Positions 21,301-48,936 of a stretch of 64,000 nucleotides of DNA are shown here, piece by piece. A program made the position numbers and the translations under genes. The DNA comes from Escherichia phage Phi1: the sequence record EF437941; one strand, 5' to 3'. The notes below the pieces were generated by a model. It did no database searches. It saw only the letters and a program-made list of their open reading frames with translations, and was not told where the DNA came from. How positions within the stretch are numbered: position 1 is the stretch's first letter; each line of letters opens with the position of its first letter.

Positions 21301-22013
21301 AGATCCTTATTGGCTTCAAATACTGCCTTTGCGAATCCTCGCGGGGTAAGTGACCTGATAGTCTTTGTTCTGGTTCCTTTCCCGCCTAGCTTAGAATGCT
21401 GTTTACTGTACCCTTTATTAATATGCAACGGTTTCTTTTCTGGCATTATAAAGCCTTGTCCGGTCCATAAGCAAGTCTTTTTCGGGTACATATCACGGGC
21501 GGCAATATACTCAGGAAACGTAGGATGTTTATCATCTTCCGGCAAATAACCGCCATATTCCCACGGATGGAACATGTAATCAGGCTTACGCCACATACTA
21601 GAGATAACGCTTACAGGATTCTCTATCATGTAGGGAACTCCTAGCCATTCACCCAAATAAGCGGTTATTTTAGCTGCCCGTACATCATGAACTTGAATCA
21701 ATGGTCCTTGTTCTCGTTTCTTTCGTTCAAAGTGTGCAGCGCCACTAACAGCTAAATTGGTGCACGGTGGGAATGCAAATATAATATCCGGTTTCCCCCA
21801 TTCAAGGTCCATTGCTCTTTCCAGCCAGTTCAAATCAATCCAGGTGTTTACATAAGTAATGTTTGGATGTTCAAATCTGGTATTATACTTTTTGTATGTA
21901 CCGTGGTCGGCGTCATCCGCATTAAAGCAGACTACCTTATGACCTGCTTTAGCCCATTCTAGCCCCATTATCCCCGATCCGTCAAAGTTGCAGAATATTA
22001 ATTTTTGTTTCAT
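21297..22013 (-). CDS. short C5-cytosine methyltransferase-like protein (putative)
   Basis: FCNFDGSGIMG (motif I-like FxGxG), IIFAFPPCTNLAVSGA (motif IV-like PC catalytic dipeptide), MIENPV (motif VI-like ENV). At 238 aa it is too short to hold a full target-recognition domain. Confidence 0.45.
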   Translation of the reverse strand: MKQKLIFCNFDGSGIMGLEWAKAGHKVVCFNADDADHGTYKKYNTRFEHPNITYVNTWIDLNWLERAMDLEWGKPDIIFAFPPCTNLAVSGAAHFERKKREQGPLIQVHDVRAAKITAYLGEWLGVPYMIENPVSVISSMWRKPDYMFHPWEYGGYLPEDDKHPTFPEYIAARDMYPKKTCLWTGQGFIMPEKKPLHINKGYSKQHSKLGGKGTRTKTIRSLTPRGFAKAVFEANKDL

Positions 22014-22255
22014 ATACGACCCTTTAACCCAGCACAGATTTTAGTCGGTTCTTTACCGTGCCACATTAAGTAAAGTCCGTTAATGCGACCTTGTTTTGTG
22101 TGTGATTCTTTTCTGATCTTCTTATAGTGTCGTGCTTCCTCAACTGATTGTTTAGAATACCAATCATAAAGGAAGAGGCACAAAGGCCAACCATTAGCGG
22201 CCTTAATGCAGTTATTAAGAAATTCCTTATTGCGTTTAATTAATTTTCTTTTCAC
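22010..22255 (-). CDS. hypothetical basic protein (81 aa)
   Basis: ORF translationally coupled to neighbours (4-nt overlaps). Confidence 0.5.
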   Translation of the reverse strand: MKRKLIKRNKEFLNNCIKAANGWPLCLFLYDWYSKQSVEEARHYKKIRKESHTKQGRINGLYLMWHGKEPTKICAGLKGRI

Positions 22256-22503
22256 GCTGCCCCCATTGGTTTGATAGTAACAGAATCTAAAAGACCTTTG
22301 TTAGCCAGTTCGCGGCAAGTTTTCAGATCCGTAACTTCCCAGCCAGCCGCAATCAGGTTATCGATGAGGCTGTTAGCTACTTCCTCGCTCATGAAAGAGC
22401 ACTGTTTGCCGATGGTGTAGCGCACACGATGTAATTTCAGTTTACGGAAGCCTTTAACGTTCAGGTCTTTAGCGATTTTCTTTGCGGTTTCGATGTTAGC
22501 CAT
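22252..22503 (-). CDS. hypothetical protein (83 aa), first gene of the operon
   Basis: Preceded by PeSL leader GGAGAATCAAACA and a promoter cassette. Confidence 0.55.
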   Translation of the reverse strand: MANIETAKKIAKDLNVKGFRKLKLHRVRYTIGKQCSFMSEEVANSLIDNLIAAGWEVTDLKTCRELANKGLLDSVTIKPMGAA

Positions 22504-22550
22504 TGTTTGATTCTCCTAAGTGGTATCTCGTTTCGATGGTTGTATTGTAG

Positions 22551-22573
22551 GGGGAGTTATCCTCCCCTGTCAA
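22551..22573 (-). promoter_or_regulatory. PeSL-type early promoter cassette
   Basis: Hairpin ggggag-ttatc-ctcccc (22551-22567) abutting plus tgtcaa 22568-22573. Confidence 0.55.
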
Positions 22574-22587
22574 CACTTTTTATAAAA

Positions 22588-22755
22588 TTATTTGTTAATT
22601 TCTGGTGCGTTGCTAGGATAGTAACCTTCTTTAACTCCGAGGTATTTCGCAACCATCCCTACAATCTTCTGTGCTACTACAATGTCAAATTTCAGATAAT
22701 CTTCGCCGTGGGTTTCAATGATATATGCTTCACATGCTGCTTTAGTCTCGAACAT
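22588..22755 (-). CDS. hypothetical small protein (55 aa), duplicated gene copy 1
   Basis: MFETKAACEAYIIETHGEDYLKFDIVVAQKIVGMVAKYLGVKEGYYPSNAPEINK; about 90% aa identity to CDS 25863..26030. Confidence 0.55.
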   Translation of the reverse strand: MFETKAACEAYIIETHGEDYLKFDIVVAQKIVGMVAKYLGVKEGYYPSNAPEINK

Positions 22756-22794
22756 TTTGATTCTCCTATTTCGTTTCGGTATGTGTGTAGTATA

Positions 22795-22817
22795 GGGGAT
22801 CTCCCGACCCCCGTCAA
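22795..22817 (-). promoter_or_regulatory. PeSL-type early promoter cassette (imperfect hairpin)
   Basis: ggggatctcccgacccc (one substitution from the palindrome at 27233) followed by plus cgtcaa (minus TTGACG). Confidence 0.5.
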
Positions 22818-22831
22818 CAACTTTTTTAAAA

Positions 22832-23113
22832 TTATTCGTGATTAGTTTCGATGTTGTGCATTTTGCACCAGTTCAACCAATCACCCATATCTTGATAGTT
22901 GATGCTTTTATCTGCTGCCATCGTTTTTGTCTTGATACCCATATGTGCGTTATGAGTAAGCATTTTTACAGTGAACTCAATTTTATCGCCTTTAGCTTTA
23001 ACATCAACCAGTTTGGTCCACTGGCTACCAGCGCCGCGAATGTTCATACCAACGATGTTTCCGATGTATGCTTCTTTGTTTTTCAGGATTTCGGTTGCTT
23101 TGATGAATTTCAT
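22832..23113 (-). CDS. hypothetical protein (93 aa)
   Basis: ORF with conserved PeSL leader upstream. Confidence 0.55.
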   Translation of the reverse strand: MKFIKATEILKNKEAYIGNIVGMNIRGAGSQWTKLVDVKAKGDKIEFTVKMLTHNAHMGIKTKTMAADKSINYQDMGDWLNWCKMHNIETNHE

Positions 23114-23170
23114 TTTTGATTCTCCAGTTCGTTTCGGTATGGGTGTATTATGCTATGTTCTTACTTTGGT

Positions 23171-23176
23171 GTCAAC
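23171..23176 (-). promoter_or_regulatory. early promoter -35 element with conserved leader, no clear stem-loop
   Basis: Plus gtcaac (minus GTTGAC) with leader gtttcggtatgggtgtattat and RBS before the ATG at 23113. Confidence 0.4.
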
Positions 23177-23183
23177 AACTTTT

Positions 23184-23453
23184 TTAGATATTTTCAGAAA
23201 TAAATTTTAAAACTTGACGTAAATGTTTCTCATCTTTGATAGTCGCCGGAAGTTCTTCTTTTACTTCCTGTGCAAGATAGATATTTCCGTTCCAAGTGAA
23301 AGATCCGTCTTTGTTTACGCGATAGCTGAACATCCACTCGCAATCATTTTCGATTTCATATACACACAGAAGGGTGTAATCGTTAAAGCTATTGATTTCA
23401 AGGTCGAAGCCGTGACGTTTTGCAAAGTTGGTAGTGGTTTTAGTCAGTGCCAT
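23184..23453 (-). CDS. hypothetical protein (89 aa)
   Basis: ORF with conserved leader upstream. Confidence 0.55.
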   Translation of the reverse strand: MALTKTTTNFAKRHGFDLEINSFNDYTLLCVYEIENDCEWMFSYRVNKDGSFTWNGNIYLAQEVKEELPATIKDEKHLRQVLKFISENI

Positions 23454-23516
23454 TGTTTGATTCTCCTAAGTGGTATCTCGTTTCGATGGGTGTATTATGC
23501 TATAGGTCGGATCTGG

Positions 23517-23522
23517 TGTCAA
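23517..23522 (-). promoter_or_regulatory. early promoter -35 element with conserved leader
   Basis: Plus tgtcaa (minus TTGACA) preceded on the minus strand by an A-tract; conserved leader follows. Confidence 0.4.
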
Positions 23523-23552
23523 TTCTTTTTTTAAAATTTTATGCAATAAAAA

Positions 23553-23572
23553 AGCCGACGCTAAGGTCGGCT
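23553..23572 (-). terminator. Rho-independent terminator (minus strand)
   Basis: Stem AGCCGAC / GTCGGCT with loop gctaag; minus-strand U-tract (plus A-run 23546-23552). Confidence 0.55.
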
Positions 23573-23579
23573 AATAAAA

Positions 23580-23888
23580 TCATTTAGACAAATAATCATT
23601 CAGTGCAATCCGGTCGGCGTATGCTGGTGTTACGTCAATCGCAATCACTTTAACGCGTGCTTTCTTGCGACCTGGGTTTTCACGTAACCAGTGCTCATGA
23701 CCGTGAACATTTTTATACTGCGATGCTTCTTCGAAGGTACGGATCGGACCTGGGTAATCAGCGTAAAGGATCTCTAGATCTTCGGTGATGTAAAAATATA
23801 CATCATAATTACTGTTCTCTAGTTTAAGCAGAGACTTTCGGAACATTGGGAGATTTTCGCGGGTAAATTCAAAGATATTATCTTTCAT
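23580..23888 (-). CDS. HxHW-motif small protein, paralog family member 1 of 6
   Basis: YDVYFYITEDLEILYADY...HGHEHWLRENPG...VKVIAIDVTPAYADRI; shares the family pattern with five other ORFs. Confidence 0.6.
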   Translation of the reverse strand: MKDNIFEFTRENLPMFRKSLLKLENSNYDVYFYITEDLEILYADYPGPIRTFEEASQYKNVHGHEHWLRENPGRKKARVKVIAIDVTPAYADRIALNDYLSK

Positions 23889-23916
23889 AGTATTATCCTC
23901 AATAGTTGGATGAGAA

Positions 23917-23932
23917 GGGGCGTTAACGCCCC
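23917..23932 (-). terminator. GC hairpin, possible terminator or RNA-stabilising 3' structure
   Basis: GGGGCG-ttaa-CGCCCC; flanking U-tract is weak. Confidence 0.3.
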
Positions 23933-23938
23933 CATATA

Positions 23939-24226
23939 TTAAAACAGTCCTTCATGTACACCGTAGTAGAGTTCGTCGCTGATAATTTCATTAATGCGAC
24001 GGTGTGCATATTCCTGATTTGCGAAGTTGTCAGCAAGTTCTACTTTAGTTTCGCCGTCATGAGTCCATTTAGTGATAACTTTACCATCTGCAAATTTGAA
24101 GTTGAACTCTTTAGCTACTGCATCGCGTACCAGACGTGCAAACTTATTGTTGCGGATTGCATTGTCGGTTTCGTGTGAAGCGTGAGCAAATTTGTTAACT
24201 TTCAGAGTGATAGTGATGTATGCCAT
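23939..24226 (-). CDS. hypothetical protein (95 aa)
   Basis: ORF with PeSL leader; weak similarity to CDS 27265..27576 (shared AKEFN motif). Confidence 0.55.
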   Translation of the reverse strand: MAYITITLKVNKFAHASHETDNAIRNNKFARLVRDAVAKEFNFKFADGKVITKWTHDGETKVELADNFANQEYAHRRINEIISDELYYGVHEGLF

Positions 24227-24266
24227 AATTTGATTCTCCTAGTTAGAAAGTGTATCTCGTTTTGAT

Positions 24267-24301
24267 GGGGATATTATGCTATATCCCCGATCCGGTGTCA
24301 A
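24267..24301 (-). promoter_or_regulatory. PeSL-type early promoter cassette
   Basis: Palindrome ggggatat-tatgct-atatcccc (24267-24288), which contains the -10 CATAAT on the minus strand; plus tgtcaa at 24296-24301 with 17-nt spacer. Confidence 0.6.
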
Positions 24302-24307
24302 CACTTT

Positions 24308-24586
24308 TTATAAAATAATTTTTTGATATTTTTCTATGATGTTCGTGTAAGTCACATCAACCGCTAGCACCGTTGCTTCGAATCCACCGTTTAGCCAATG
24401 GCTATGATCATGGTCGTGAAAGAAACCTAGACCAGTACGAAGACCTTCTTTATATTCTGCGCGTACATTCAGTTTGTCGTCGATAAACAGATAAAACCAT
24501 GAATTTTTACTAGGATTGATGATACAACCTTTCAGATTAGGGAGAATATCACGACTAAGAATAAACTTATCACCTACTTTGAACAT
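24308..24586 (-). CDS. HxHW-motif small protein, paralog family member 2 of 6
   Basis: SWFYLFIDDKLNVRAEY...HDHDHSHWLNGGFEATVLAVDVT; start taken at ATG 24584-24586, which has a GAGGA RBS. Confidence 0.6.
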   Translation of the reverse strand: MFKVGDKFILSRDILPNLKGCIINPSKNSWFYLFIDDKLNVRAEYKEGLRTGLGFFHDHDHSHWLNGGFEATVLAVDVTYTNIIEKYQKIIL

Positions 24587-24590
24587 AATA

Positions 24591-24911
24591 TTAGTCCTCA
24601 CTTATAAGGTCAAACCAATTGTTTTTCGCATAATGCTTAATGCGTGCTTGATCTGCTTCCGCTGGTGATAGATTCCATGCAACCACTACAACTTCTGACG
24701 CATCGTCATCCGTTTCTGATACCCAATGATTGTGATTCATACAGTTATTTGCTATCGAGTGAGCAAATGATTTCATCACTGGAGACGTATAATCATAGTA
24801 ACGGATTTTCAGATTTTCATCAACATACAAATAGATCGTATAAGGTTTATATTCAGTAACCAGTAACAGACAGTTACGCAATTCTGGGAAAATCTTTTTA
24901 GTTAATTTCAT
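24591..24911 (-). CDS. HxHW-motif small protein, paralog family member 3 of 6
   Basis: YTIYLYVDENLKIRYYDY...NHNHWVSETDDDASEVVVVAWNLSPAEADQ. Confidence 0.6.
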   Translation of the reverse strand: MKLTKKIFPELRNCLLLVTEYKPYTIYLYVDENLKIRYYDYTSPVMKSFAHSIANNCMNHNHWVSETDDDASEVVVVAWNLSPAEADQARIKHYAKNNWFDLISED

Positions 24912-25113
24912 ATTCTAGTTCTCCGTAATACACGGTAATCCATTTTTCTTCATACTTTGTATCTTTCCAACACACAATACCGTTTACTGTGCAATCTTTG
25001 GAATTGACGAATGATTCATATTGTTCCGCATCTTCCATCATTTCATGAGCGGTCTTTTCATCGAATATATCGCAGATCGCTTTATATGCTCGATAATCTT
25101 TAAATTTGCTCAT
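24898..25113 (-). CDS. hypothetical small protein, tandem paralog A (MSKFKDY family)
   Basis: MSKFKDYRAYKAICDIFDEKTAHEMMEDAEQ... is paralogous to the adjacent 25116..25325 product (MSKFKDYKAYQQILRVYEPEFAEKMMEDAS). Confidence 0.55.
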   Translation of the reverse strand: MSKFKDYRAYKAICDIFDEKTAHEMMEDAEQYESFVNSKDCTVNGIVCWKDTKYEEKWITVYYGELEYEIN

Positions 25114-25115
25114 AA

Positions 25116-25325
25116 TTAACACCACTCAAGAGTTTTTGAAAACACATCTATCCATTGTTGAGTATATGCGGTTTCTTTCCATGATACAATACCAGTCGAA
25201 TAATGGTTTTTGTTTCCAGAAAAGGACGGGCATTTTGATGCATCTTCCATCATCTTTTCGGCGAACTCTGGTTCGTATACTCGCAAGATCTGTTGATATG
25301 CTTTATAATCTTTAAACTTACTCAT
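25116..25325 (-). CDS. hypothetical small protein, tandem paralog B (MSKFKDY family)
   Basis: See paralog A; start overlaps the upstream stop (ATGA). Confidence 0.55.
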   Translation of the reverse strand: MSKFKDYKAYQQILRVYEPEFAEKMMEDASKCPSFSGNKNHYSTGIVSWKETAYTQQWIDVFSKTLEWC

Positions 25326-25606
25326 AACAACACCACCGATACATCGTAATCATTCGCGGCCTTATCGGCTTCTTCAACCGACATAATACCTTCTGCGACA
25401 ATTGGCATAGGGTGATCGTGATTCCACCAATGGTCATGTATATCAATTTCAGTTTTGCCGGAAAATGAATCATGTTTGACGTTTTTCACTTTATACCCGA
25501 TGTGACCGTCGTGGTCAATAAAGATATAGTTTCCGAAAATCGGTGTCTGTAAAATCATACCGAAAAATTTTTCTTTGTTGTTCGGGTCGAGTGTAATCAT
25601 TTTCAT
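25322..25606 (-). CDS. HxHW-motif small protein, paralog family member 4 of 6
   Basis: NYIFIDHDGHIGYKV...IDIHDHWWNHDHPMPIVAEGIMSVEEADKA. Confidence 0.55.
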   Translation of the reverse strand: MKMITLDPNNKEKFFGMILQTPIFGNYIFIDHDGHIGYKVKNVKHDSFSGKTEIDIHDHWWNHDHPMPIVAEGIMSVEEADKAANDYDVSVVLL

Positions 25607-25619
25607 AATATATTCCTCT

Positions 25620-25799
25620 TAGAAAGGGATGGTCATTTCTTGAGCTTGTACATTCTCATTAGGATTAAACTTAATCCAACCGATATTGTCTACCAGCATA
25701 TGCACATTTTTATCATATCCTACGTGAGTAGTCAACACTAAATGTGATTTACCTTCAACGATGATTTCCATGTACTTCTGAACTTCGATAGCTTTCATT
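25620..25799 (-). CDS. hypothetical small protein (59 aa)
   Basis: ATG 25797-25799 preceded by GGAGAATCAAA leader; translation MKAIEVQKYMEIIVEGKSHLVLTTHVGYDKNVHMLVDNIGWIKFNPNENVQAQEMTIPF. Confidence 0.45.
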
Positions 25800-25825
25800 T
25801 TGATTCTCCGTTTGTTGTCTTGATG

Positions 25826-25860
25826 GGAGTATCTTACTACTCCCTTTAATCATTGTCAAC
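25826..25860 (-). promoter_or_regulatory. PeSL-type early promoter cassette
   Basis: Palindrome gggagta-tcttac-tactccc (25826-25845); plus tgtcaa at 25855-25860; minus-strand -10 TAAGAT sits in the loop. Confidence 0.55.
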
Positions 25861-25862
25861 TA

Positions 25863-26030
25863 TTATTTGTTAATTTCCGGTGCGTTGCTTGGATAGTAAC
25901 CTTCTTTAACACCCAGATATTTTGCAACCATTCCGGTGATCTTCTGTGCTACTACGATATCGAATTTCAGGTAGTCTTCACCGTGGGTTGCTACAAAGTA
26001 TGCTTCGCATTCTGCTTTAGTCTGGAACAT
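25863..26030 (-). CDS. hypothetical small protein (55 aa), duplicated gene copy 2
   Basis: MFQTKAECEAYFVATHGEDYLKFDIVVAQKITGMVAKYLGVKEGYYPSNAPEINK; the ORF-track entry 25863..26117 reads through the promoter, so the start is set at ATG 26028-26030. Confidence 0.55.
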   Translation of the reverse strand: MFQTKAECEAYFVATHGEDYLKFDIVVAQKITGMVAKYLGVKEGYYPSNAPEINK

Positions 26031-26069
26031 TTTGATTCTCCTATATCTCGTTGGTATGTGTGTAGTATA

Positions 26070-26092
26070 GGGGATCGGTGATCCCCTGTCAA
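26070..26092 (-). promoter_or_regulatory. PeSL-type early promoter cassette
   Basis: Minus strand reads TTGACA-ggggatcaccgatcccc-TATACT: the 17-nt palindrome forms the spacer exactly. Confidence 0.65.
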
Positions 26093-26100
26093 CAACTTTT

Positions 26101-26409
26101 TTATTCTTCATCTTCATTTTTATCTTTATATGCGTACTTCATAAATTTGTCTGCTACTTTGTCCGCGTTTTCAGGTTCTACGTCTGACGCTAGGACAACA
26201 GCTAGTTCGGTTTTGTCGTTTCCATCATACCAATGATTATGAGTGTCGTTTTCTTCGATATAAAACGAATCATTTGGAGTTGTGCGACAATATACGTCTA
26301 AATTCCCATCGATATAAAAGATCCAATCCGAATACAAAATGATTGCGTTAGCCAGATTTTTATTGTCTCTTACAAAAGGTTCCGCGACAAATAGCTTAGT
26401 TTGTTCCAT
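26101..26409 (-). CDS. HxHW-motif small protein, paralog family member 5 of 6
   Basis: DWIFYIDGNLDVYCRT...NDTHNHWYDGNDKTELAVVLASDVEPENADK; start at ATG 26407-26409 with GAGGAA RBS. Confidence 0.55.
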   Translation of the reverse strand: MEQTKLFVAEPFVRDNKNLANAIILYSDWIFYIDGNLDVYCRTTPNDSFYIEENDTHNHWYDGNDKTELAVVLASDVEPENADKVADKFMKYAYKDKNEDEE

Positions 26410-26425
26410 AATATTTTCCTCAAAA

Positions 26426-26617
26426 TTATACAGCTTCGTAAACTTCCCAATGTTCAGCGCCAACACGCTTAACGAAAAGGTTTTCTTTGATGTTATTCAT
26501 AAACGTCTGGATGGATTTAATGCGGTTGGAAGGTTTCCAGTCTTCGTTGGCATTGCGATGATACATAATAACATTACCAGTTCGCTTATATTCAGCAACC
26601 ATTTTAAGACCACACAT
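26426..26617 (-). CDS. hypothetical protein (63 aa)
   Basis: ORF with GAGGA RBS 8 nt upstream of the ATG. Confidence 0.45.
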   Translation of the reverse strand: MCGLKMVAEYKRTGNVIMYHRNANEDWKPSNRIKSIQTFMNNIKENLFVKRVGAEHWEVYEAV

Positions 26618-26674
26618 AATATTATCCTCAATTTGTGGGAGAGTATTACCCCTCCCAATGATTGTTATGTTATA

Positions 26675-26995
26675 TCACACAAAATGGCGTGTCAATGCTT
26701 CTTTTGCGGTTCCGCTAAGACTTTCGATCTCGCCTGGCATAACATCAACCGCCAGAACTTCTACAACATCCTCGGACCCTAACCAGTGAGTATGGCCTTT
26801 GTAGAACTTGATAACCAGACTACCTTCCTCATCCCATTTAACACTATCGCTAGCCCACCACACATCACCGTCGATAAAGTTGATGTAAAGCACACTACGC
26901 CACATTGAATTAATTACTTTCAATACTGCGCCTTTCATCTCTTCCACGGTATGGTCTTCCATTTTGAAGACCTCACCTACCTGAACTTTTGCCAT
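26675..26995 (-). CDS. HxHW-motif small protein, paralog family member 6 of 6
   Basis: SVLYINFIDGDVWWASD...YKGHTHWLGSEDVVEVLAVDVMPGEIESL. Confidence 0.6.
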   Translation of the reverse strand: MAKVQVGEVFKMEDHTVEEMKGAVLKVINSMWRSVLYINFIDGDVWWASDSVKWDEEGSLVIKFYKGHTHWLGSEDVVEVLAVDVMPGEIESLSGTAKEALTRHFV

Positions 26996-27012
26996 TTAGT
27001 CACCTCTCTTTA

Positions 27013-27192
27013 TTACATAACAATCACGCCAGCCGTTGAAAGTTGATGTTTCAACTGAGCATTTTCTGCTACCGTCAAATCAATGATTTCTTGTGACGCT
27101 GCAATCATATATCCATTGGTGATATTGTTTTGCATCAGTTCAATGGTTTCTTCGTTGTAGCGGATTTTAGCGATGATTTCGTTGAAGTTCAT
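27013..27192 (-). CDS. hypothetical small protein (59 aa)
   Basis: ATG 27190-27192 with GGAGAATCAATC leader; translation MNFNEIIAKIRYNEETIELMQNNITNGYMIAASQEIIDLTVAENAQLKHQLSTAGVIVM. Confidence 0.45.
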   Translation of the reverse strand: MNFNEIIAKIRYNEETIELMQNNITNGYMIAASQEIIDLTVAENAQLKHQLSTAGVIVM

Positions 27193-27232
27193 GATTGATT
27201 CTCCTAGTTCGTTTCGGTATGTGTGTATTATA

Positions 27233-27256
27233 GGGGATCTCCCGATCCCCTGTCAA
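27233..27256 (-). promoter_or_regulatory. PeSL-type early promoter cassette
   Basis: Palindrome ggggatc-tccc-gatcccc (27233-27250) abutting plus tgtcaa 27251-27256; -10 TATAAT on the minus strand. Confidence 0.65.
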
Positions 27257-27264
27257 CAACTTTT

Positions 27265-27576
27265 TTAAAGTTTTTCCATGATAACGGTCATAATTACATC
27301 TTCTGCGCGAGCGGTCAGATTATCAGCGTCAGCATGTGGGCGGTTGGTTGTTACAGAGATAACACCGTTGCGCACTGGTTTGATATTGATATCAAGATGA
27401 TCCGCGAAACGTTCGCCAGTTACAGAATGAATTTTGGTGTTAAATTCTTTTGCCAGTGCCTTGCGAACTTCACGAATCAGGGTAGCGTTTTTCAGTTGGT
27501 TCTCCGCGCTCATGGTCTTCTGGGTGTTCATGGTTCCGTCGAAGTCAATCATTGGCAGCGTTACGATGTATTTCAT
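27265..27576 (-). CDS. hypothetical protein (103 aa)
   Basis: ORF with PeSL leader. Confidence 0.55.
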   Translation of the reverse strand: MKYIVTLPMIDFDGTMNTQKTMSAENQLKNATLIREVRKALAKEFNTKIHSVTGERFADHLDINIKPVRNGVISVTTNRPHADADNLTARAEDVIMTVIMEKL

Positions 27577-27628
27577 TTTTGATTCTCCGTTTAAGAAAGT
27601 GTGTTTCGTTTTGATGTGTGTATTATAA

Positions 27629-43406: not shown

Positions 43407-44789
43407 TTACGCTGTCAACTCTTTTTCAAAAGATTTTACGATATACATGATAGTGCTCAATTCAGACGGCGCTACTGTTTCTGTGTAGCCATCCGGCATA
43501 TCTTCTTTTGATATATAGGAAGTTTTATCTTTCATTGCTTCCTTGATCTTGTTCTCTAAGTCTAAGATCTTTTGACCGTCTTGTAAAGTCAATTCATAAA
43601 AGATCTCGTGATCGAACTTAGAAACACGAGATTGGTTTCTCATTCGTTCTTGTGTTGTTAAATTGGTTATTCCAAACTTAACTGCCGTTAACGATTTATG
43701 TTTGTTTAGTTTCTGTACATAAAATGTTCCAGGTTTTATAGGTTGATAGCCCATTTTAGAACATTTTCTGCATCTTGTTCCAGATTGTACAAATTTACTA
43801 TATGTTGGTGTATACTCATGACCCATTTCACATGTAATTTTTAATCTTGTTTCGACCCCAGAATAGCTACCTCCACAAAATCCGTGAAATTTATTATTAC
43901 CCAACACGGAAATTATATTTTTTATTGCATCGTCTTCGTTCCTGCGACCACTACATACTCCACATCTATATCCACCATGAAAAAAATCACTAAACGCAAT
44001 ATTGTACTCGTGTCCATTATTACACGTCATATTAAGTCTCGTCCTTATATTTTCGTATTTTCCACCAACAAATCCATTGAAAATATGGTCTCCTTTGACC
44101 GAATTAATTCTATCTAACGCGGTAGTTTCTGTTAAACGCTTGGTCCCGCAGCATTCTGGGCATCTAGTTCCTTGAATAAAATGACCATACGTTGGTTGAT
44201 ATATGTGTCCATTATTACACTCTATTATTAACTTTGTTTTATGTGCACCAATGTAAGCACCACCAACAAATCCATGAAATTTTTCATCGACCAGTGCGTT
44301 GATGATATTTTGTATAGCTTCATCATTCGATTTTTTGTGTTTATTATTGCAAATTGGACATGTATTGACACCACCAATTATGCTGGAATAACATCTATGG
44401 TATTCGTGACCGTGTTCTTTACATTTTAATATAATTTTAGATGTCGATACATTTTTAAACTCTTCTGTCGTGAAACCCATAAACTCGCTATCTGTTAATG
44501 AAGATTTGATATCATCAATAACTTGTTCGGTTGATTTCTTTGCATTGGGTGCGCATAAACCACACTTGGTTTTTCTTCCAACTAGTGTTTTAATAGTTTT
44601 TGTGTGTGTTGTGTGTCCTTTATCGCACATTATACATACCCTTGTATCACATCCTTTCCAATCATCAACAAACCCGAGAAATTTGTAATTTATAGAGTGA
44701 CAATATTCGCGTACTGTATTCTCGTGAATTGTCGGTTGTTTTTGTCTCTTACCAACGCAAATGTCCTTAGCAAAGTATGTTTTCATCAT
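43407..44789 (-). CDS. multi-zinc-ribbon repeat protein with C-terminal GIY-YIG/T5orf172-like domain (putative mobile endonuclease-like)
   Basis: Four tandem ~50-aa modules of pattern hGF.GG.Y...L...C..GHEY...Y..F..G.RC..C plus an N-terminal zinc ribbon; C-terminus GTFYVQKL...LTAVKFGITNLTTQERMRNQ. Start set at the ATG pair with GGAGGA RBS (44787-44789). Confidence 0.55.
   Translation of the reverse strand: MMKTYFAKDICVGKRQKQPTIHENTVREYCHSINYKFLGFVDDWKGCDTRVCIMCDKGHTTHTKTIKTLVGRKTKCGLCAPNAKKSTEQVIDDIKSSLTDSEFMGFTTEEFKNVSTSKIILKCKEHGHEYHRCYSSIIGGVNTCPICNNKHKKSNDEAIQNIINALVDEKFHGFVGGAYIGAHKTKLIIECNNGHIYQPTYGHFIQGTRCPECCGTKRLTETTALDRINSVKGDHIFNGFVGGKYENIRTRLNMTCNNGHEYNIAFSDFFHGGYRCGVCSGRRNEDDAIKNIISVLGNNKFHGFCGGSYSGVETRLKITCEMGHEYTPTYSKFVQSGTRCRKCSKMGYQPIKPGTFYVQKLNKHKSLTAVKFGITNLTTQERMRNQSRVSKFDHEIFYELTLQDGQKILDLENKIKEAMKDKTSYISKEDMPDGYTETVAPSELSTIMYIVKSFEKELTA
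43413..43418 (-). promoter_or_regulatory. early promoter -35 element (TTGACA) with conserved leader
   Basis: Plus tgtcaa; leader tttcgatgtttgtattata; no obvious stem-loop. Confidence 0.4.
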
Positions 44790-44839
44790 TTTTATCCTCC
44801 GTTGTTCGATGTGTGCATGATACATGACCACATAAGCAT

Positions 44840-44906: not shown

Positions 44907-45881
44907 TTACATCGCTAACAGAGAGTCCAGGTCATCCAGATCAGAAGCGGAGGAAGTACCGCCACCCAGATCCAGCGATGCCATCAGGTCATCAGCGGAA
45001 GAATCTAACGCCGTGCTAGCTGCGTTAATACCAACTACAGTGCTAGCTGCGGTAATACCAGCGTCGAATGCATTCATCTGTGCGTCAAAATCATCAAGCT
45101 GGCTGTTAATCGCTGCCGCAGCACTGGAAGCCGCAGCACCAGCTACCATAGACACACCCATAGTTTTCTTAAATTTGGTTTCCAGTTCATCGAACGGTTT
45201 AAACTGGCTAGGCGCTACAATCTCACTCAGATCAACCATGTTTTCCATCAGGTATTTCTGATATGCTTCGTCTTCAATCTTCGGAAGCTGTGATTGCTGC
45301 ATGACACGAGAATCATCATAGTTGTGGTGTATATCAACCTTCTTAGCTTTCAGGACGAAGTTAGCGCCAGAGAACACACAAGTTACATCTACCGGAACTT
45401 GGCCCATATCGGTATTCACGTTCACCATTGCAACGATCTTATCATAAATTTTCTGACCGAAGCGGAATTTGAATACCTTACCTTCATTTTCTGGTGCTTG
45501 AGGATCTTTCAGTACCAGAATATTTGCGTAGTAGGACGCTTTACGCTTAATCAGTTGCCATTCGGTTTTATCGGTATTGTATAGGTCTTTTTCGTTAATA
45601 TATTTGCACACAGGGCAAGAATCAAAATCACCGTGGGTGCTTGAGCAGTTTTCCCAATACCATTTGCCATTAACTTTGAAGGAATGGTTTACCAGTTTCA
45701 CAATCGGCAGACCGTCTTCTGTCTTAGACGGCAGGAAGCGAATCAGGGCTTCACCGTTACCTGCTGCATCAGTCTTAATCTTCCACTCTTTCGGATCTTC
45801 TTTGGAGAAACCGTTGCCACCTTTCAGTGCGGCCAGTTGAGCTTGCAGTTTGGAGCTATCTTGACGTTTAAACATATTCAC
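44907..45881 (-). CDS. 32: single-stranded DNA-binding protein gp32
   Basis: [51 protein letters not shown]...[16 protein letters not shown]...[30 protein letters not shown] matches T4 gp32; the start may be the second ATG at 45875. Confidence 0.9.
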
Positions 45882-45935
45882 TATTCCTTCTTTTGATTAA
45901 TTTACTAGACTATTATACAGATTTAAATTTACTTG

Positions 45936-46616
45936 TCAACTATTTGTTTCGGCTTTTAATTGAGATATTTCTTTACACTCTTTAACTACTTTAACAAATA
46001 ATGCTCTTGCTTTTGCGGCGTCAATAACAAGTAGTTTCTTGTACGCCTTCATTTTAACACTATAAGTTTGCCAAATCAAGTCTTTGGCTACCTTGTCGTG
46101 TTCGTCGATTATATTTAGAAAGCTATCTAACAACATAAACGACTCAAACGATATAATCCGATTTTGCAGTAGTTTAAATATACCGCTAGTTTCGGTTGCG
46201 GGATTGTATGTAATTAGCTCTTTAAGAGTAACCCCGCGTTTCTCGGAGAAGTATACCAGACTTTTAATGTCATCGTCAAATCTTGTTGCTGCATCGGTTA
46301 TCTTTCCTATGTATTCCATATAAAAGCCGTATGCGTCAACATCAGTGATTTCACCTACCCATGCATCGGTATTAGCTACCAGATTGCTTAGGAATAGGAA
46401 GTATAATTCTCTTAGATTGTACTTTTCCGCTAATTTTGCGAAATAATACTTATCTCTGCGTTTATTGAATGCGGCATCAGACAACCGCATCCTCCAATTG
46501 TATTTTACGCAATCATAACGCCCGTTCATGTGAGCTTTCATCATGCAATATAACATATACACAGATTTAGCATTAATTCGCATATCTGGATCTGGAGGAA
46601 GACGGTTTCTGATCAT
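45936..46616 (-). CDS. 59: helicase loader gp59
   Basis: GRYDCVKYNWRMRLSDAAFNKRRDKYYFAKL...NLVANTDAWVGEI...LLQNRIISFESFMLLDSFLNIIDEHDK matches T4 gp59. Confidence 0.9.
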   Translation of the reverse strand: MIRNRLPPDPDMRINAKSVYMLYCMMKAHMNGRYDCVKYNWRMRLSDAAFNKRRDKYYFAKLAEKYNLRELYFLFLSNLVANTDAWVGEITDVDAYGFYMEYIGKITDAATRFDDDIKSLVYFSEKRGVTLKELITYNPATETSGIFKLLQNRIISFESFMLLDSFLNIIDEHDKVAKDLIWQTYSVKMKAYKKLLVIDAAKARALFVKVVKECKEISQLKAETNS

Positions 46617-46625
46617 ACATACCCC

Positions 46626-46895
46626 TTAAATATCGAGAGTGTTGGTCGGTTCGTCGATCACTCCCTTCCTGAGCGTTCTATTTACTATACATTCTTGTGT
46701 GATCTTGTCAATAATGGACACCGGAATATACTTCTGATAGTGACCATATTCTATAGAGTTTTCCTCTACAAACTGAGTTGTCGCTTCAAGATAAGTCAAT
46801 CCCTCTTCAACAACCAATTTTTCGATTGCAAGACCGTTTGCTGTTTTGTTCGCGGCTTTTACCGCATGTTCATTAAGCATTGAACACCCGATCAT
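46626..46895 (-). CDS. 33: gp33-like late transcription accessory protein (by synteny)
   Basis: Small ORF in the T4 position of gene 33 (32-59-33-dsbA-rnh); sequence match not verified from memory; alternative starts at 46880 or 46873. Confidence 0.45.
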   Translation of the reverse strand: MIGCSMLNEHAVKAANKTANGLAIEKLVVEEGLTYLEATTQFVEENSIEYGHYQKYIPVSIIDKITQECIVNRTLRKGVIDEPTNTLDI

Positions 46896-47148
46896 AGAGT
46901 TCTACCGCTTCGTCGCGTTCTGCTTCGAAGGTTTCGCGCTGTTGCTGGTGATACAGTTTAAACAGAATGCCCCACATTTTACCATCTACGCCTAATTCTT
47001 CTTTAGCACGCTGTTTGATCTCTTTGATCTTATCGCCATATGCTTCTTGAATGGTTTTCTGATCGCTGGCTTCTTTAATCAGTTGTGCCAGGGTATTTCC
47101 GTGCACTGCTTCGTCAAATACTACTTTTTCTTTTTTCTGTTCAGTCAT
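46873..47148 (-). CDS. dsbA: DsbA-like dsDNA-binding protein (by synteny)
   Basis: 91 aa (T4 DsbA is 89 aa), in the T4 dsbA position upstream of gp33. Confidence 0.45.
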   Translation of the reverse strand: MTEQKKEKVVFDEAVHGNTLAQLIKEASDQKTIQEAYGDKIKEIKQRAKEELGVDGKMWGILFKLYHQQQRETFEAERDEAVELYDRVFNA

Positions 47149-47152
47149 AATA

Positions 47153-47752
47153 TTAACCCTCTTTAGTCATTAATTGAAAACCACGTTCAGCTTTTGAGAT
47201 TTCGCTAGGACTTAAATCGTCACCCACATATTCTAGCATCATTTCTCGGATAATGTCAAGTGCTTTTTCATCACCTGATTTTAACTCGAACTCAAGTTCA
47301 TAATGAGCAGTGTCGCCCAATCCTTCGCCTACTTTGCCATAATAGAAAGTGTCTTTGCACATTTCCACTATACCACAACCCATATCTAGAGTCAATGACT
47401 TTCGATATGTCATTACTTGCATTATTGTAGTGATATAGTCGGAGTTTACCCCTAGACTATCAATAAAATGGACGAACTCATCCCAGTTTGAAAATGTCAT
47501 TTCATCGCGGTTGAATAGTCCAGATTCATTATCACCCATTTTGATCATGATCTCTGATTTTCTACAGTCAAGTCGTGCATAAATTCCTTTTTGACGTAGA
47601 GCATGATCTTCGGTATCATAATAAAATTCGTGTTTTAATATGTTATCTCGATCGACGATATTATAACCGTCATACATTGCCACCCACAAATCACAGATGG
47701 TTTCGACGCCAATTTGTGAGTGTGCATAGTATTTTAACTCAAGTTCTTTCAT
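47153..47752 (-). CDS. CYTH-domain protein (CyaB/ThTPase-like triphosphate tunnel metalloenzyme), putative
   Basis: N-terminal KELELKYY (the ExExK motif) and C-terminal YELEFELK acidic strand motif typical of CYTH domains; 199 aa. Confidence 0.45.
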   Translation of the reverse strand: MKELELKYYAHSQIGVETICDLWVAMYDGYNIVDRDNILKHEFYYDTEDHALRQKGIYARLDCRKSEIMIKMGDNESGLFNRDEMTFSNWDEFVHFIDSLGVNSDYITTIMQVMTYRKSLTLDMGCGIVEMCKDTFYYGKVGEGLGDTAHYELEFELKSGDEKALDIIREMMLEYVGDDLSPSEISKAERGFQLMTKEG

Positions 47753-47762
47753 GTGTCAACCC

Positions 47763-48707
47763 TTAGAACTCACCAATTTTCTGCAACATTTTAACTAACG
47801 CATTTGTTACAAAATAGTTATAAATTTTACCGCGTGGTGCTGGTTTAGATTTTTCCCATGACTCAAGAATCTGATTCTGAATATCATCTGGGATGTAATC
47901 GAAGTCAATAAGTTCGCGGTTTTCGTCAAAACGTCGTGCTTCTTCTTCTGTCATCAAAGACTTTGGATCTTCGGCATCGAAAATTTGCTCTAACCATTTG
48001 GTTGCAACTGGTTTAGCTCGTTCCCCTTCCAGTCTAGAGATAATGAAATCACTACGACACTTGACAGAAGCCACACCGTCTTTTGCGTCACCCTTAACAC
48101 ATTTTACCATAAGGTCTTTGTAAGGGCTACCATATTTGCATTTCTTCCATGCTTTCTGTACTGGCGCCCACTGTTTCACGTTTTTGTATTTGTGCAACTG
48201 CGTGTAGTCACCATCACCTGAGTTGATCAGCACCTGGCGACCTTCTACAGAAAACTTTTTAGTTAATACAGCGATTATATCATCTGCTTCAACTTTGTCA
48301 ACCTTAATAACGTGATAAGGCATGTTCTCTTTAAACTCTTCGGTGATCTTATTGATCGCAGCAAAGATCATCTCCCAATCACGCGGATCTGCGTCTCGTT
48401 TTTCCTTACGGTTGCGTTTATAGTAAGGGGCGATATCACGTCGCCAGTAACCTTTGCTTGAATCAAAAGCAAGCACCGTAATAGGGTATTGCTCTTTGAA
48501 TTTTGTCATATTATAACGCATGGTGTCAAGAATAAGATGACGGATCATGCCTTCATTAATAGATCTCCGGTTAAAGGTATGCGAGATAGTCGCAATCATA
48601 AGCTGCGACATATCAATCAAATGCACACCTTCCGGCAGTTTATCTTCTGGATCATCGAAGAAATCATTAAGTGTAGCGGTAGTTTTTGTAAACGGGTTAT
48701 ACGTCAT
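47763..48707 (-). CDS. rnh: RNase H (5'-3' exonuclease, FEN-1 family)
   Basis: IRHLILDTMRYN, KGYWRRDIAPYYKRNR, PYHVIKVDKVEADDIIAVLTKKFSVEG, SGDGDYTQLHKYKNVKQW, ASVKCRSDF, ISRLEGER, LIDFDYIPDDI, PRGKIYNYFV match T4 RNase H. Confidence 0.9.
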   Translation of the reverse strand: MTYNPFTKTTATLNDFFDDPEDKLPEGVHLIDMSQLMIATISHTFNRRSINEGMIRHLILDTMRYNMTKFKEQYPITVLAFDSSKGYWRRDIAPYYKRNRKEKRDADPRDWEMIFAAINKITEEFKENMPYHVIKVDKVEADDIIAVLTKKFSVEGRQVLINSGDGDYTQLHKYKNVKQWAPVQKAWKKCKYGSPYKDLMVKCVKGDAKDGVASVKCRSDFIISRLEGERAKPVATKWLEQIFDAEDPKSLMTEEEARRFDENRELIDFDYIPDDIQNQILESWEKSKPAPRGKIYNYFVTNALVKMLQKIGEF

Positions 48708-48892
48708 ATAGTTCTCTCCACTCTCACAACAACATATTCTCCAAACGAGTTAGATACTTCACGATCATACCCGTATTTCTCCATAACTCGCAGAATTGCA
48801 TTGTTTAATTCGGCGCGGAAATAATTGTAATCCTTATCAGGGATTCTGTCAACTACCCATTTTGCACCGTCTGACAAATCAACTTTAACCAT
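48704..48892 (-). CDS. hypothetical protein (62 aa)
   Basis: ORF overlapping the rnh start (ATGA); first gene of the minus-strand unit that diverges from gene 34. Confidence 0.5.
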   Translation of the reverse strand: MVKVDLSDGAKWVVDRIPDKDYNYFRAELNNAILRVMEKYGYDREVSNSFGEYVVVRVERTI

Positions 48893-48928
48893 AATATATC
48901 ATCCTCTTTGTTTCTATCAAGCCTTATT

Positions 48929-48936
48929 TATAAATA
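48929..48936 (+). promoter_or_regulatory. T4-type late promoter (TATAAATA) for gene 34
   Basis: Exact TATAAATA 28 nt upstream of the gp34 ATG; AAGGAGA RBS in between. Confidence 0.55.

Follow-up and report, generated by a model that had tools for sequence, protein, structure and literature searches.

Among the described members of the CYTH superfamily, the triphosphate tunnel metalloenzymes (TTMs), the one that bears most directly on the present work is YgiF of Escherichia coli, an inorganic triphosphatase of known structure (PDB 5A60 and 5A61; cluster 1 of the CYTH sequence similarity network). YgiF hydrolyses inorganic triphosphate (PPPi) in a Mg-dependent reaction, hydrolyses thiamine triphosphate (ThTP) slowly, and does not hydrolyse ATP, GTP, ITP, pyrophosphate (PPi) or the polyphosphate polyP65 (PMC3440374). 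The ligand of metal 1 in this enzyme is E160. Metal 2, the ion that activates the attacking water, has E4, E6 and E162 as its ligands. R56 is essential, and AtTTM3 can do without the adjacent arginine of the RxR pair (Martinez et al., PMC4641920). Here we describe a protein of 199 amino acids encoded between rnh and dsbA in a 64,000-nucleotide stretch of DNA from Escherichia phage Phi1 (sequence record EF437941), hereafter called the window. Sequence comparison and structural modelling indicate that it is a genuine stand-alone CYTH/TTM protein of the YgiF branch, and it is probably an active two-metal hydrolase that removes the terminal phosphate of a small triphosphate.

Several other groups of enzymes share this fold. 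YgiF itself, to which the phage protein is about 22% identical, carries in addition a 230-residue CHAD (polyphosphate-binding) domain that the phage protein lacks, and the gene described here differs further in being phage-encoded and in lying in a probable rnh-dsbA operon. The single-domain TTM triphosphatases and polyphosphatases of Nitrosomonas europaea (NeuTTM) and Clostridium thermocellum (CthTTM) have the same architecture of about 150-200 amino acids, and have in common with the phage protein the ExExK and ExE motifs and a two-metal hydrolytic chemistry, which for the phage protein is a prediction. The class IV adenylate cyclases, such as CyaB of Aeromonas hydrophila and the Yersinia pestis enzyme (2FJT, 3N0Y), belong to the same superfamily with the same fold and two metals, and are recognised by an HFxxxxExExK motif, an ExA on strand beta8, and a small residue where beta3 otherwise has its central arginine (Vogt et al., PMC8233210). 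Other viral TTMs include the Cet1-type capping triphosphatases of giant viruses as well as phage proteins (Aeh1ORF004c and those of Aeromonas phage 65.2, Ralstonia phage RP12 and jumbo phages); these are structurally remote from the protein described here, with template-modelling (TM) scores of 0.3-0.5 compared to 0.95 within its own family, and their genomic positions differ. For the CYTH proteins of jumbo phages, roles in the clearing of nucleoside triphosphates have been proposed (PMC7824862).

The assignment of a CYTH/ygiF-like domain to this gene is already in the public record and is hence not new. Nolan et al. listed RB49ORF244c in 2006 with a Pfam CYTH match (PMC1524935), and the RefSeq record of phage RB49 describes RB49p245 as “similar to ... 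ygiF”. The records of the genus Krischvirus mostly label the gene as a hypothetical protein, with four labels of “adenylate cyclase” and two of “inorganic triphosphatase”, and PHROG 14893 is labelled “unknown function”. Literature searches on phage CYTH/TTM function, on CYTH in Krischvirus and on anti-defence returned only the 2006 Pfam listing and the general remark on jumbo phages. What follows is mostly a clean-up of annotation, by which the gene in 57 Krischvirus records can be named as a putative stand-alone triphosphate tunnel hydrolase of the YgiF type and no longer needs to be called a cyclase. To this we add the exclusion of a cyclase, a map of residues onto YgiF, a remodelled tunnel, and synteny in distant relatives; what appears new from the comparison of alleles is a surface cassette that recombines while the active site it surrounds stays invariant.

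Fold and active site

The open reading frame (ORF) was first noticed in an initial annotation made from the letters alone, which gave its position and its length of 199 amino acids exactly (Table 1) and left its strand, the minus strand, unstated. The two peptides quoted there are found in the translation: the N-terminal KELELKYYA within MKELELKYYA, providing E3-x-E5-x-K7, and YELEFELK at residues 151-158, in the context H150-YELEFELK-S159. Since the ORF listing begins at the first start codon past a stop, there is no possible in-frame upstream extension. The protein matches the Pfam CYTH family (PF01928) at 28.7 bits (E=1.4e-6), above the gathering cut-off of 23.2. As a single sequence searched against the PDB it yields matches at noise level only (TriTu immunity protein, E=0.04; YgiF, E=1.1), and a family profile was needed. 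The profile of 18 family members aligns end to end with the TTM domain of YgiF, residues 1-193 with residues 3-202, at E=3.5e-32, with no other PDB match better than 3e-5 and values of 0.018-0.09 for the class IV cyclases. The family is narrow, with 9 cluster representatives at E<=1e-3 among 1.84 billion proteins.

An AlphaFold2 model built on the family alignment has a predicted local distance difference test score (pLDDT) of 93.8 and a predicted TM score (pTM) of 0.87. It consists of eight long strands (residues 2-10, 31-46, 57-62, 67-76, 79-87, 108-123, 127-139 and 150-160), which form a tunnel in the shape of an antiparallel beta-barrel, with a C-terminal plug helix closing one of its sides. 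A search with this model by Foldseek returned YgiF (5a60) as the top match, with E=4e-12 and a TM score of 0.77, followed by other TTM enzymes. The Skers-type allele, whose variable region is only 42% identical, is modelled with an identical set of secondary-structure elements and a pLDDT of 93.7. The CYTH identification made initially is therefore upheld by the Pfam, profile and Foldseek matches, and it also survives what was to have spoken against it, a predicted fold without the eight-stranded tunnel lined by acidic residues. A CHAD domain was sought in the 199-residue protein and is absent, as all residues align to YgiF 1-200. Recent capture of the host ygiF was considered and rejected on the grounds of the low identity, the missing CHAD domain, and the closest cellular relatives being stand-alone CYTH proteins at about 30% identity.

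The profile alignment carries the metal sites of YgiF across to the phage protein. At metal site 2, E4, E6 and E162 of YgiF correspond to E3, E5 and E156; at metal site 1, E160 corresponds to E154. Of the other active-site residues, E158 and K8 of YgiF become E152 and K7, and R60 is the equivalent of the essential R56. Conservation was scored over 45 full-length phage-family sequences, in all 45 of which E3, E5, K7, R60, K71, R82, E84, R117, E152, E154, E156, K187 and R190 are invariant. In a wider alignment that adds cellular relatives, most of these, E3, E5, E154 and E156 among them, are still invariant, and R60 (>=90%) and E152 are nearly so, while K187, R190 and G191 of the plug helix do not vary even with the cellular relatives and YgiF (SKAARGY) included. 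Across the tunnel the acidic residues E152, E154 and E156 of beta8 face the basic residues R60, K71, R82 and R117, as in other CYTH proteins, and their counterparts in YgiF are known from crystal structures and mutagenesis.

Codons in the tunnel register contain 0, 1 and 0 non-synonymous against 6, 7 and 4 synonymous differences when compared with RB49, JK32 and GEC-3S respectively, a ratio of non-synonymous to synonymous rates (dN/dS) of 0-0.02; the remaining codons from 11 to 147 give 0.40-0.53 in the same three comparisons. Purifying selection on the enzyme core is all but absolute, and since the tunnel codons are held by it, the gene is likely to encode an enzyme that works, as opposed to a passenger in decay. 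By homology with the crystal structures of YgiF and AtTTM3, the triphosphate moiety would be gripped in the middle of the barrel by K7, R60, K71, R82 and R117 together with K187 and R190 of the plug helix. A Mg2+ or Mn2+ ion at site 1 would bridge the substrate to E154, and the metal at site 2, with E3, E5 and E156 as its ligands, would activate a water molecule for attack on the terminal phosphate, which is then released as inorganic phosphate.

For a protein of this fold the initial annotation had left two options, hydrolysis of triphosphates or cyclisation of nucleotides in order to manipulate host signalling. The first agrees with the retention, under such strong selection, of all the metal-site and catalytic residues of YgiF. 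The second fails at each of the three class IV determinants: no HF motif precedes ExExK, with only M1-K2 standing before E3; beta8 reads E154-F-E156, its second glutamate not replaced by alanine; and the central arginine of beta3, R60, is not replaced by a small neutral residue, but is invariant in the 45-sequence set. A class IV (CyaB-like) adenylate or nucleotidyl cyclase that produces cyclic nucleotides might be suspected from the common superfamily, from the four phage records labelled as such, and from the legacy name of “putative adenylate cyclase” on several PDB neighbours, but this reading is already largely refuted by the sequence and we consider it very improbable. Judged by these residues, the protein almost certainly hydrolyses its substrate and does not cyclise it, and the “adenylate cyclase” labels look to be inherited misannotation.

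Lineage and the variable cassette

The window comes from an RB49-like phage of the genus Krischvirus, not from T4, and in this region it is 95-97% identical to FL38, ECD7, RB49 and others. A search for homologues in other T4-like phages found the gene in the slot between rnh and dsbA in 57 of the 57 Krischvirus records of the phage collection, and the slot is also occupied by a CYTH gene in uncultured T4-like phages in which the protein is only 31-51% identical; a scan of IMG/VR added three close copies and nothing further. Every phage homologue found lies directly upstream of dsbA-gp33, with rnh preceding wherever the contig extends far enough. The order rnh-CYTH-dsbA-gp33 is kept in phages whose CYTH proteins are 33-59% identical, and the short contigs L001 and L002 show CYTH-dsbA-gp33. 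The remark in the initial annotation that T4 has no gene at this place is borne out by NC_000866, where a gap of 8 nt separates the end of dsbA at 149778 from the start of rnh at 149787. Its description of the gene as inserted between dsbA and rnh stands in so far as the slot is empty in T4, but not in the sense of a recent insertion, which we reject because the same slot is occupied where dsbA is 70-83% and CYTH 33-51% identical. Since the slot is filled in all 57 Krischvirus records and in distant relatives, the gene appears to be an old, lineage-specific resident.

The CYTH protein is far less conserved than its surroundings. Compared with RB49, the 58 shared genes in approximately 50 kb have a median protein identity of about 99%, while the CYTH protein is 83% identical and the fourth most divergent, surpassed by a 474-residue zinc-finger/CapR ORF and two small hypothetical proteins. 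The same disparity is seen in the other comparisons: in Skers (L003) the CYTH protein is 58% identical against 99% for dsbA and 96% for rnh; in L007 the figures are 51% against 83% and 80%; and in L001 and L002, CYTH identities of 40% and 33% stand against 80% and 70% for dsbA. Comparison of alleles at the DNA level places this divergence in a cassette of codons ~11-150, where identity to Skers-type and P0042-type alleles is 33-73%, between flanks that are mostly 90-100% identical through dsbA and rnh. The variable patches of the protein are at positions 63-66, 86-111, 124-127 and 139-149. The 3' third of the CYTH gene is 95-100% identical in DNA even to alleles whose cassette is only 42% identical. 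Both breakpoints are common to these two independent allele classes, and at least four cassette classes are found, 39-57% identical to one another, with C-terminal thirds that are 86-98% identical. In this arrangement the outer surface would be exchanged among phages as a divergent cassette around the preserved core.

Rates of substitution are consistent with such exchange. The CYTH gene has a dN of 0.08-0.34 compared to at most 0.03 in rnh, dsbA, gp33 and gp59, and a dS of 0.25-1.15 compared to 0.02-0.2 in its neighbours, and because both are raised, the alleles would predate the sequences that flank them and have been transferred by recombination. Gene-wide positive selection was considered and is unsupported, with a dN/dS of 0.25-0.32 over the whole gene and a maximum of 0.83 (codons 62-127), never above 1. 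No paralogue, repeat or template copy of the cassette, of the kind expected from a diversity-generating mechanism, was found by blastn or tblastn within the 64-kb window.

Substrate and role

The tunnel itself differs from that of YgiF in a manner that bears on its substrate. YgiF has an RxR on beta3 and an RxK on beta6, where the phage protein reads R60-L-D62 and R117-K-S119, having lost the second basic residue of each pair. In the tunnel register D62 replaces R58, S119 replaces K128, Y58 replaces G54, Y9 replaces I10, F80 replaces H79, K40 replaces L36 and K158 replaces L164, and the seven phage residues are fixed in the phage clade. Overall, the phage protein lacks two of the basic residues of YgiF, has two new ones at other positions, and has additional aromatics; this remodelling suggests that the substrate may carry an organic group and not be bare PPPi. 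The mammalian 25-kDa thiamine triphosphatase (3BHD, 5A64) has a W/YxRxR motif, of which the phage protein keeps Y58 and R60 and has D62 in place of the second arginine, so that the motif reads YxRxD. Y58 sits where this enzyme has W53, which stacks on the thiazole ring, and in the most distant phage homologues it becomes V or I. By analogy with YgiF, PPPi is the default substrate, a choice we make only tentatively; an organic or nucleoside triphosphate, including one of the thiamine type, is from the tunnel sequence an equally tentative candidate, about as likely as PPPi. We know of no phage TTM whose substrate has been established, and a small, confidently predicted protein with a remodelled tunnel could reveal a triphosphate that a lytic phage destroys beside its replication genes.

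If the substrate is unchanged, the protein could be a strict inorganic triphosphatase with a housekeeping role like that of the host YgiF, removing PPPi, a strong chelator of Mg2+ and Ca2+, as nucleotide metabolism and replication surge. Of the characterised relatives YgiF is much the closest, and it is specific for PPPi (PMC3440374), and the phage gene lies in a replication cluster. The nearest cellular stand-alone homologue, P0044 (31% identical; L008 2858..4187), divergently adjoins PhoU-like and PHO4 phosphate-transporter genes, a neighbourhood of phosphate homeostasis, in keeping with a role of the cellular branch that concerns phosphate or polyphosphate. However, the identity to YgiF is low, its basic R58 and K128 have given way to D62 and S119 and conserved aromatics stand at Y9, Y58 and F80, and the host already possesses both YgiF and a pyrophosphatase that also hydrolyses PPPi (PMC3440374), so that we hold this role to be possible but doubtful. 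An RNA with a 5'-triphosphate is an improbable substrate, and we give correspondingly little weight to a polynucleotide 5'-triphosphatase that would act with the adjacent RNase H to remove the gamma-phosphate from Okazaki primers or transcripts, much as mRNA is processed by the Cet1-type TTMs of eukaryotic viruses. The protein might alternatively have retained the fold alone, as a non-catalytic sponge or regulator that binds triphosphate or polyphosphate. Some TTM-fold proteins are non-catalytic (Mediator Med18/20, Vtc2/3) and the change from R to D in the RxR motif could impair turnover, but no variation is seen in the four metal-binding glutamates or in the arginine that serves as proton donor, their dN/dS being about 0, and the glutamates of site 2 would be needless for mere binding; this explanation is, like the cyclase, very improbable.

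The pattern of variation raises the further question of conflict with the host. An invariant active site with a recombining divergent surface, inside a replication cluster that is otherwise 95-100% identical, is a pattern often seen in genes engaged in such conflict, and it makes the gene a reasonable candidate. The protein could destroy a triphosphate immune messenger or alarmone (for example, a non-canonical (d)NTP such as the dITP of Kongming, or pppApp/pppGpp), or it could itself be sensed by an immune system, with its surface under pressure to change. In favour of this are the hot-spot of divergence against RB49, a dN above that of the neighbours, the several cassette classes between near-identical flanks around an unchanging active site, and the existence of a defence system that signals by a nucleoside triphosphate and is triggered by phage deoxynucleoside monophosphate kinases (bioRxiv 10.1101/2024.12.20.629578). 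Against it, nothing was found that ties the gene genetically to a defence system, dN/dS does not exceed 1, the raised dS indicates that much of the divergence was imported by recombination and not driven by selection, and drift in the surface of a weakly constrained accessory enzyme accounts for the same data. Neither the PADLOC models nor the literature gave a match of the CYTH protein to a described anti-defence protein, and membership in a defence system was rejected for want of a PADLOC match. We consider a role in counter-defence or host interaction unlikely, and slightly more so its specific form, in which the Krischvirus TTM would be a counter-defence hydrolase that destroys a triphosphate messenger or alarmone, such as the dITP signal of Kongming-type systems that dNMP kinases of T4-like phages can set off, and the cassette the footprint of an arms race with host binders or sensors. 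If true, it would be the first anti-defence enzyme with a TTM fold.

An active two-metal hydrolase is the reading we prefer, and several points weigh against it. A scan of the protein with NCBIfam matched no family, that of YgiF included, and no biochemical or genetic study of any family member was found in the literature. The inward or outward orientation of residues comes from strand register relative to experimentally placed residues, and the substitutions by D62 and S119 could, from sequence, lower the affinity for PPPi or alter the chemistry. In phage vB_EcoM_G2494 a 1-nt deletion at about nt 174, at codon ~59 in the YARLD motif, splits the gene into two annotated ORFs (L017 301..896). 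The frameshift may mark a true pseudogene or may be an error of sequencing, and given its occurrence the gene may be dispensable in the laboratory. Against these points stand the conserved active site and its selection, and we regard the hydrolase as probable.

Transcription and neighbouring features

The gaps of 10 and 4 nt on the two sides of the gene (Table 1), together with junctions that are free of terminators, lead us to infer an operon with rnh and dsbA. The spacer between rnh and the CYTH gene contains an AAGGG run resembling a Shine-Dalgarno sequence, the GAGG ribosome-binding site of dsbA is supplied by the final CYTH codons, and a search for terminators between rnh, CYTH and dsbA found none. 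This arrangement implies that the CYTH gene is co-transcribed with rnh, and the protein would be made alongside RNase H and DsbA as part of the rnh-CYTH-dsbA-gp33 string.

Table 1. Coordinates in the window of the CYTH gene, its parts and its neighbours
Feature	Position	Strand	Remarks
CYTH ORF	47153..47752	minus	coding sequence, 199 aa, ATG start; = RB49p245 / RB49ORF244c, PHROG 14893
ExExK hallmark, codons 3-7	47732..47746	minus	invariant in 45/45 family members
Y-A-R-L-D on beta3, codons 58-62	47567..47581	minus	
YELEFELK on beta8, codons 151-158	47279..47302	minus	
C-terminal plug helix SKAERGFQLMTK, codons 186-197	47162..47197	minus	
Variable cassette, codons ~11-150	47303..47722	minus	DNA comparison of alleles
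Conserved 3' third of CYTH gene, codons 151-199	47153..47302	minus	
rnh/CYTH junction	47753..47765	minus	rnh stop TAA, GGGTTGACAC, ATG; 10-nt spacer
CYTH/dsbA junction	47146..47160	minus	...AAA GAG GGT TAA TATT ATG; 4-nt spacer
rnh (T4 RNase H / 5'-3' exonuclease), upstream neighbour	47763..48707	minus	Pfam
dsbA (dsDNA-binding late-transcription protein), downstream neighbour	46873..47148	minus	Pfam
gp33	46626..46895	minus	Pfam
gp59	45936..46616	minus	Pfam
gp32	44907..45881	minus	Pfam
62-aa ORF, upstream end of minus-strand string before rnh	48704..48892	minus	

Several promoter-like sequences were observed around this string. A sigma70-like site, TTGACA-18-TAGAAT with a TG, lies at 47230..47259 on the minus strand, inside the conserved 3' third, with the start of dsbA about 75 nt downstream of it. 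It is a possible dsbA promoter and may contribute to the conservation of that third at the DNA level. A perfect sigma70 consensus, TTGACA-16-TATAAT with an upstream TG (12/12), is found within the coding sequence of rnh at 48274..48301 on the minus strand, a position from which early transcripts could run through the 3' half of rnh into the CYTH gene and dsbA. At 48925..48936 the sequence TATTTATAAATA holds two overlapping late-promoter boxes of the T4 type (TATAAATA), one per strand, which fall in the short gap from which the orf62/rnh string and the tail-fibre gene 34 diverge. Further downstream the frames of dsbA and gp33 overlap by 23 nt (46873..46895), and the same overlap is present in RB49.

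Local differences between phages are also seen elsewhere in the window. The gap between gp59 and gp32 holds an HNH homing endonuclease in Skers (L003 4302..4898) and the GIY-YIG endonuclease SegG in T4 (L012 1910..2542), and it is empty in the window (45882..45935). The gp32 of JK32 (L005 4381..5328) has a protein identity of 79% to that of the window, while the adjacent gp59 is 100% identical, which makes a second local mosaic within this cluster. Downstream of gp32, the 474-residue ORF at 43407..44831 on the minus strand contains repeats of a CxxC zinc-finger module, in which Pfam recognises the CapR homology domain and the DUF4379 treble clef. Its RB49 counterpart, RB49p240, is annotated as an “endonuclease” and shares only 40% identity with it; over the 50 kb of the comparison no other retained gene has diverged as far. 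Lastly, the region of the window from about 22000 to 27600 is, by comparison with RB49 (L016), a plastic block of small hypothetical genes, in which p192 and p211 of RB49 have no counterpart and p203 and p206 are 57% and 73% identical.

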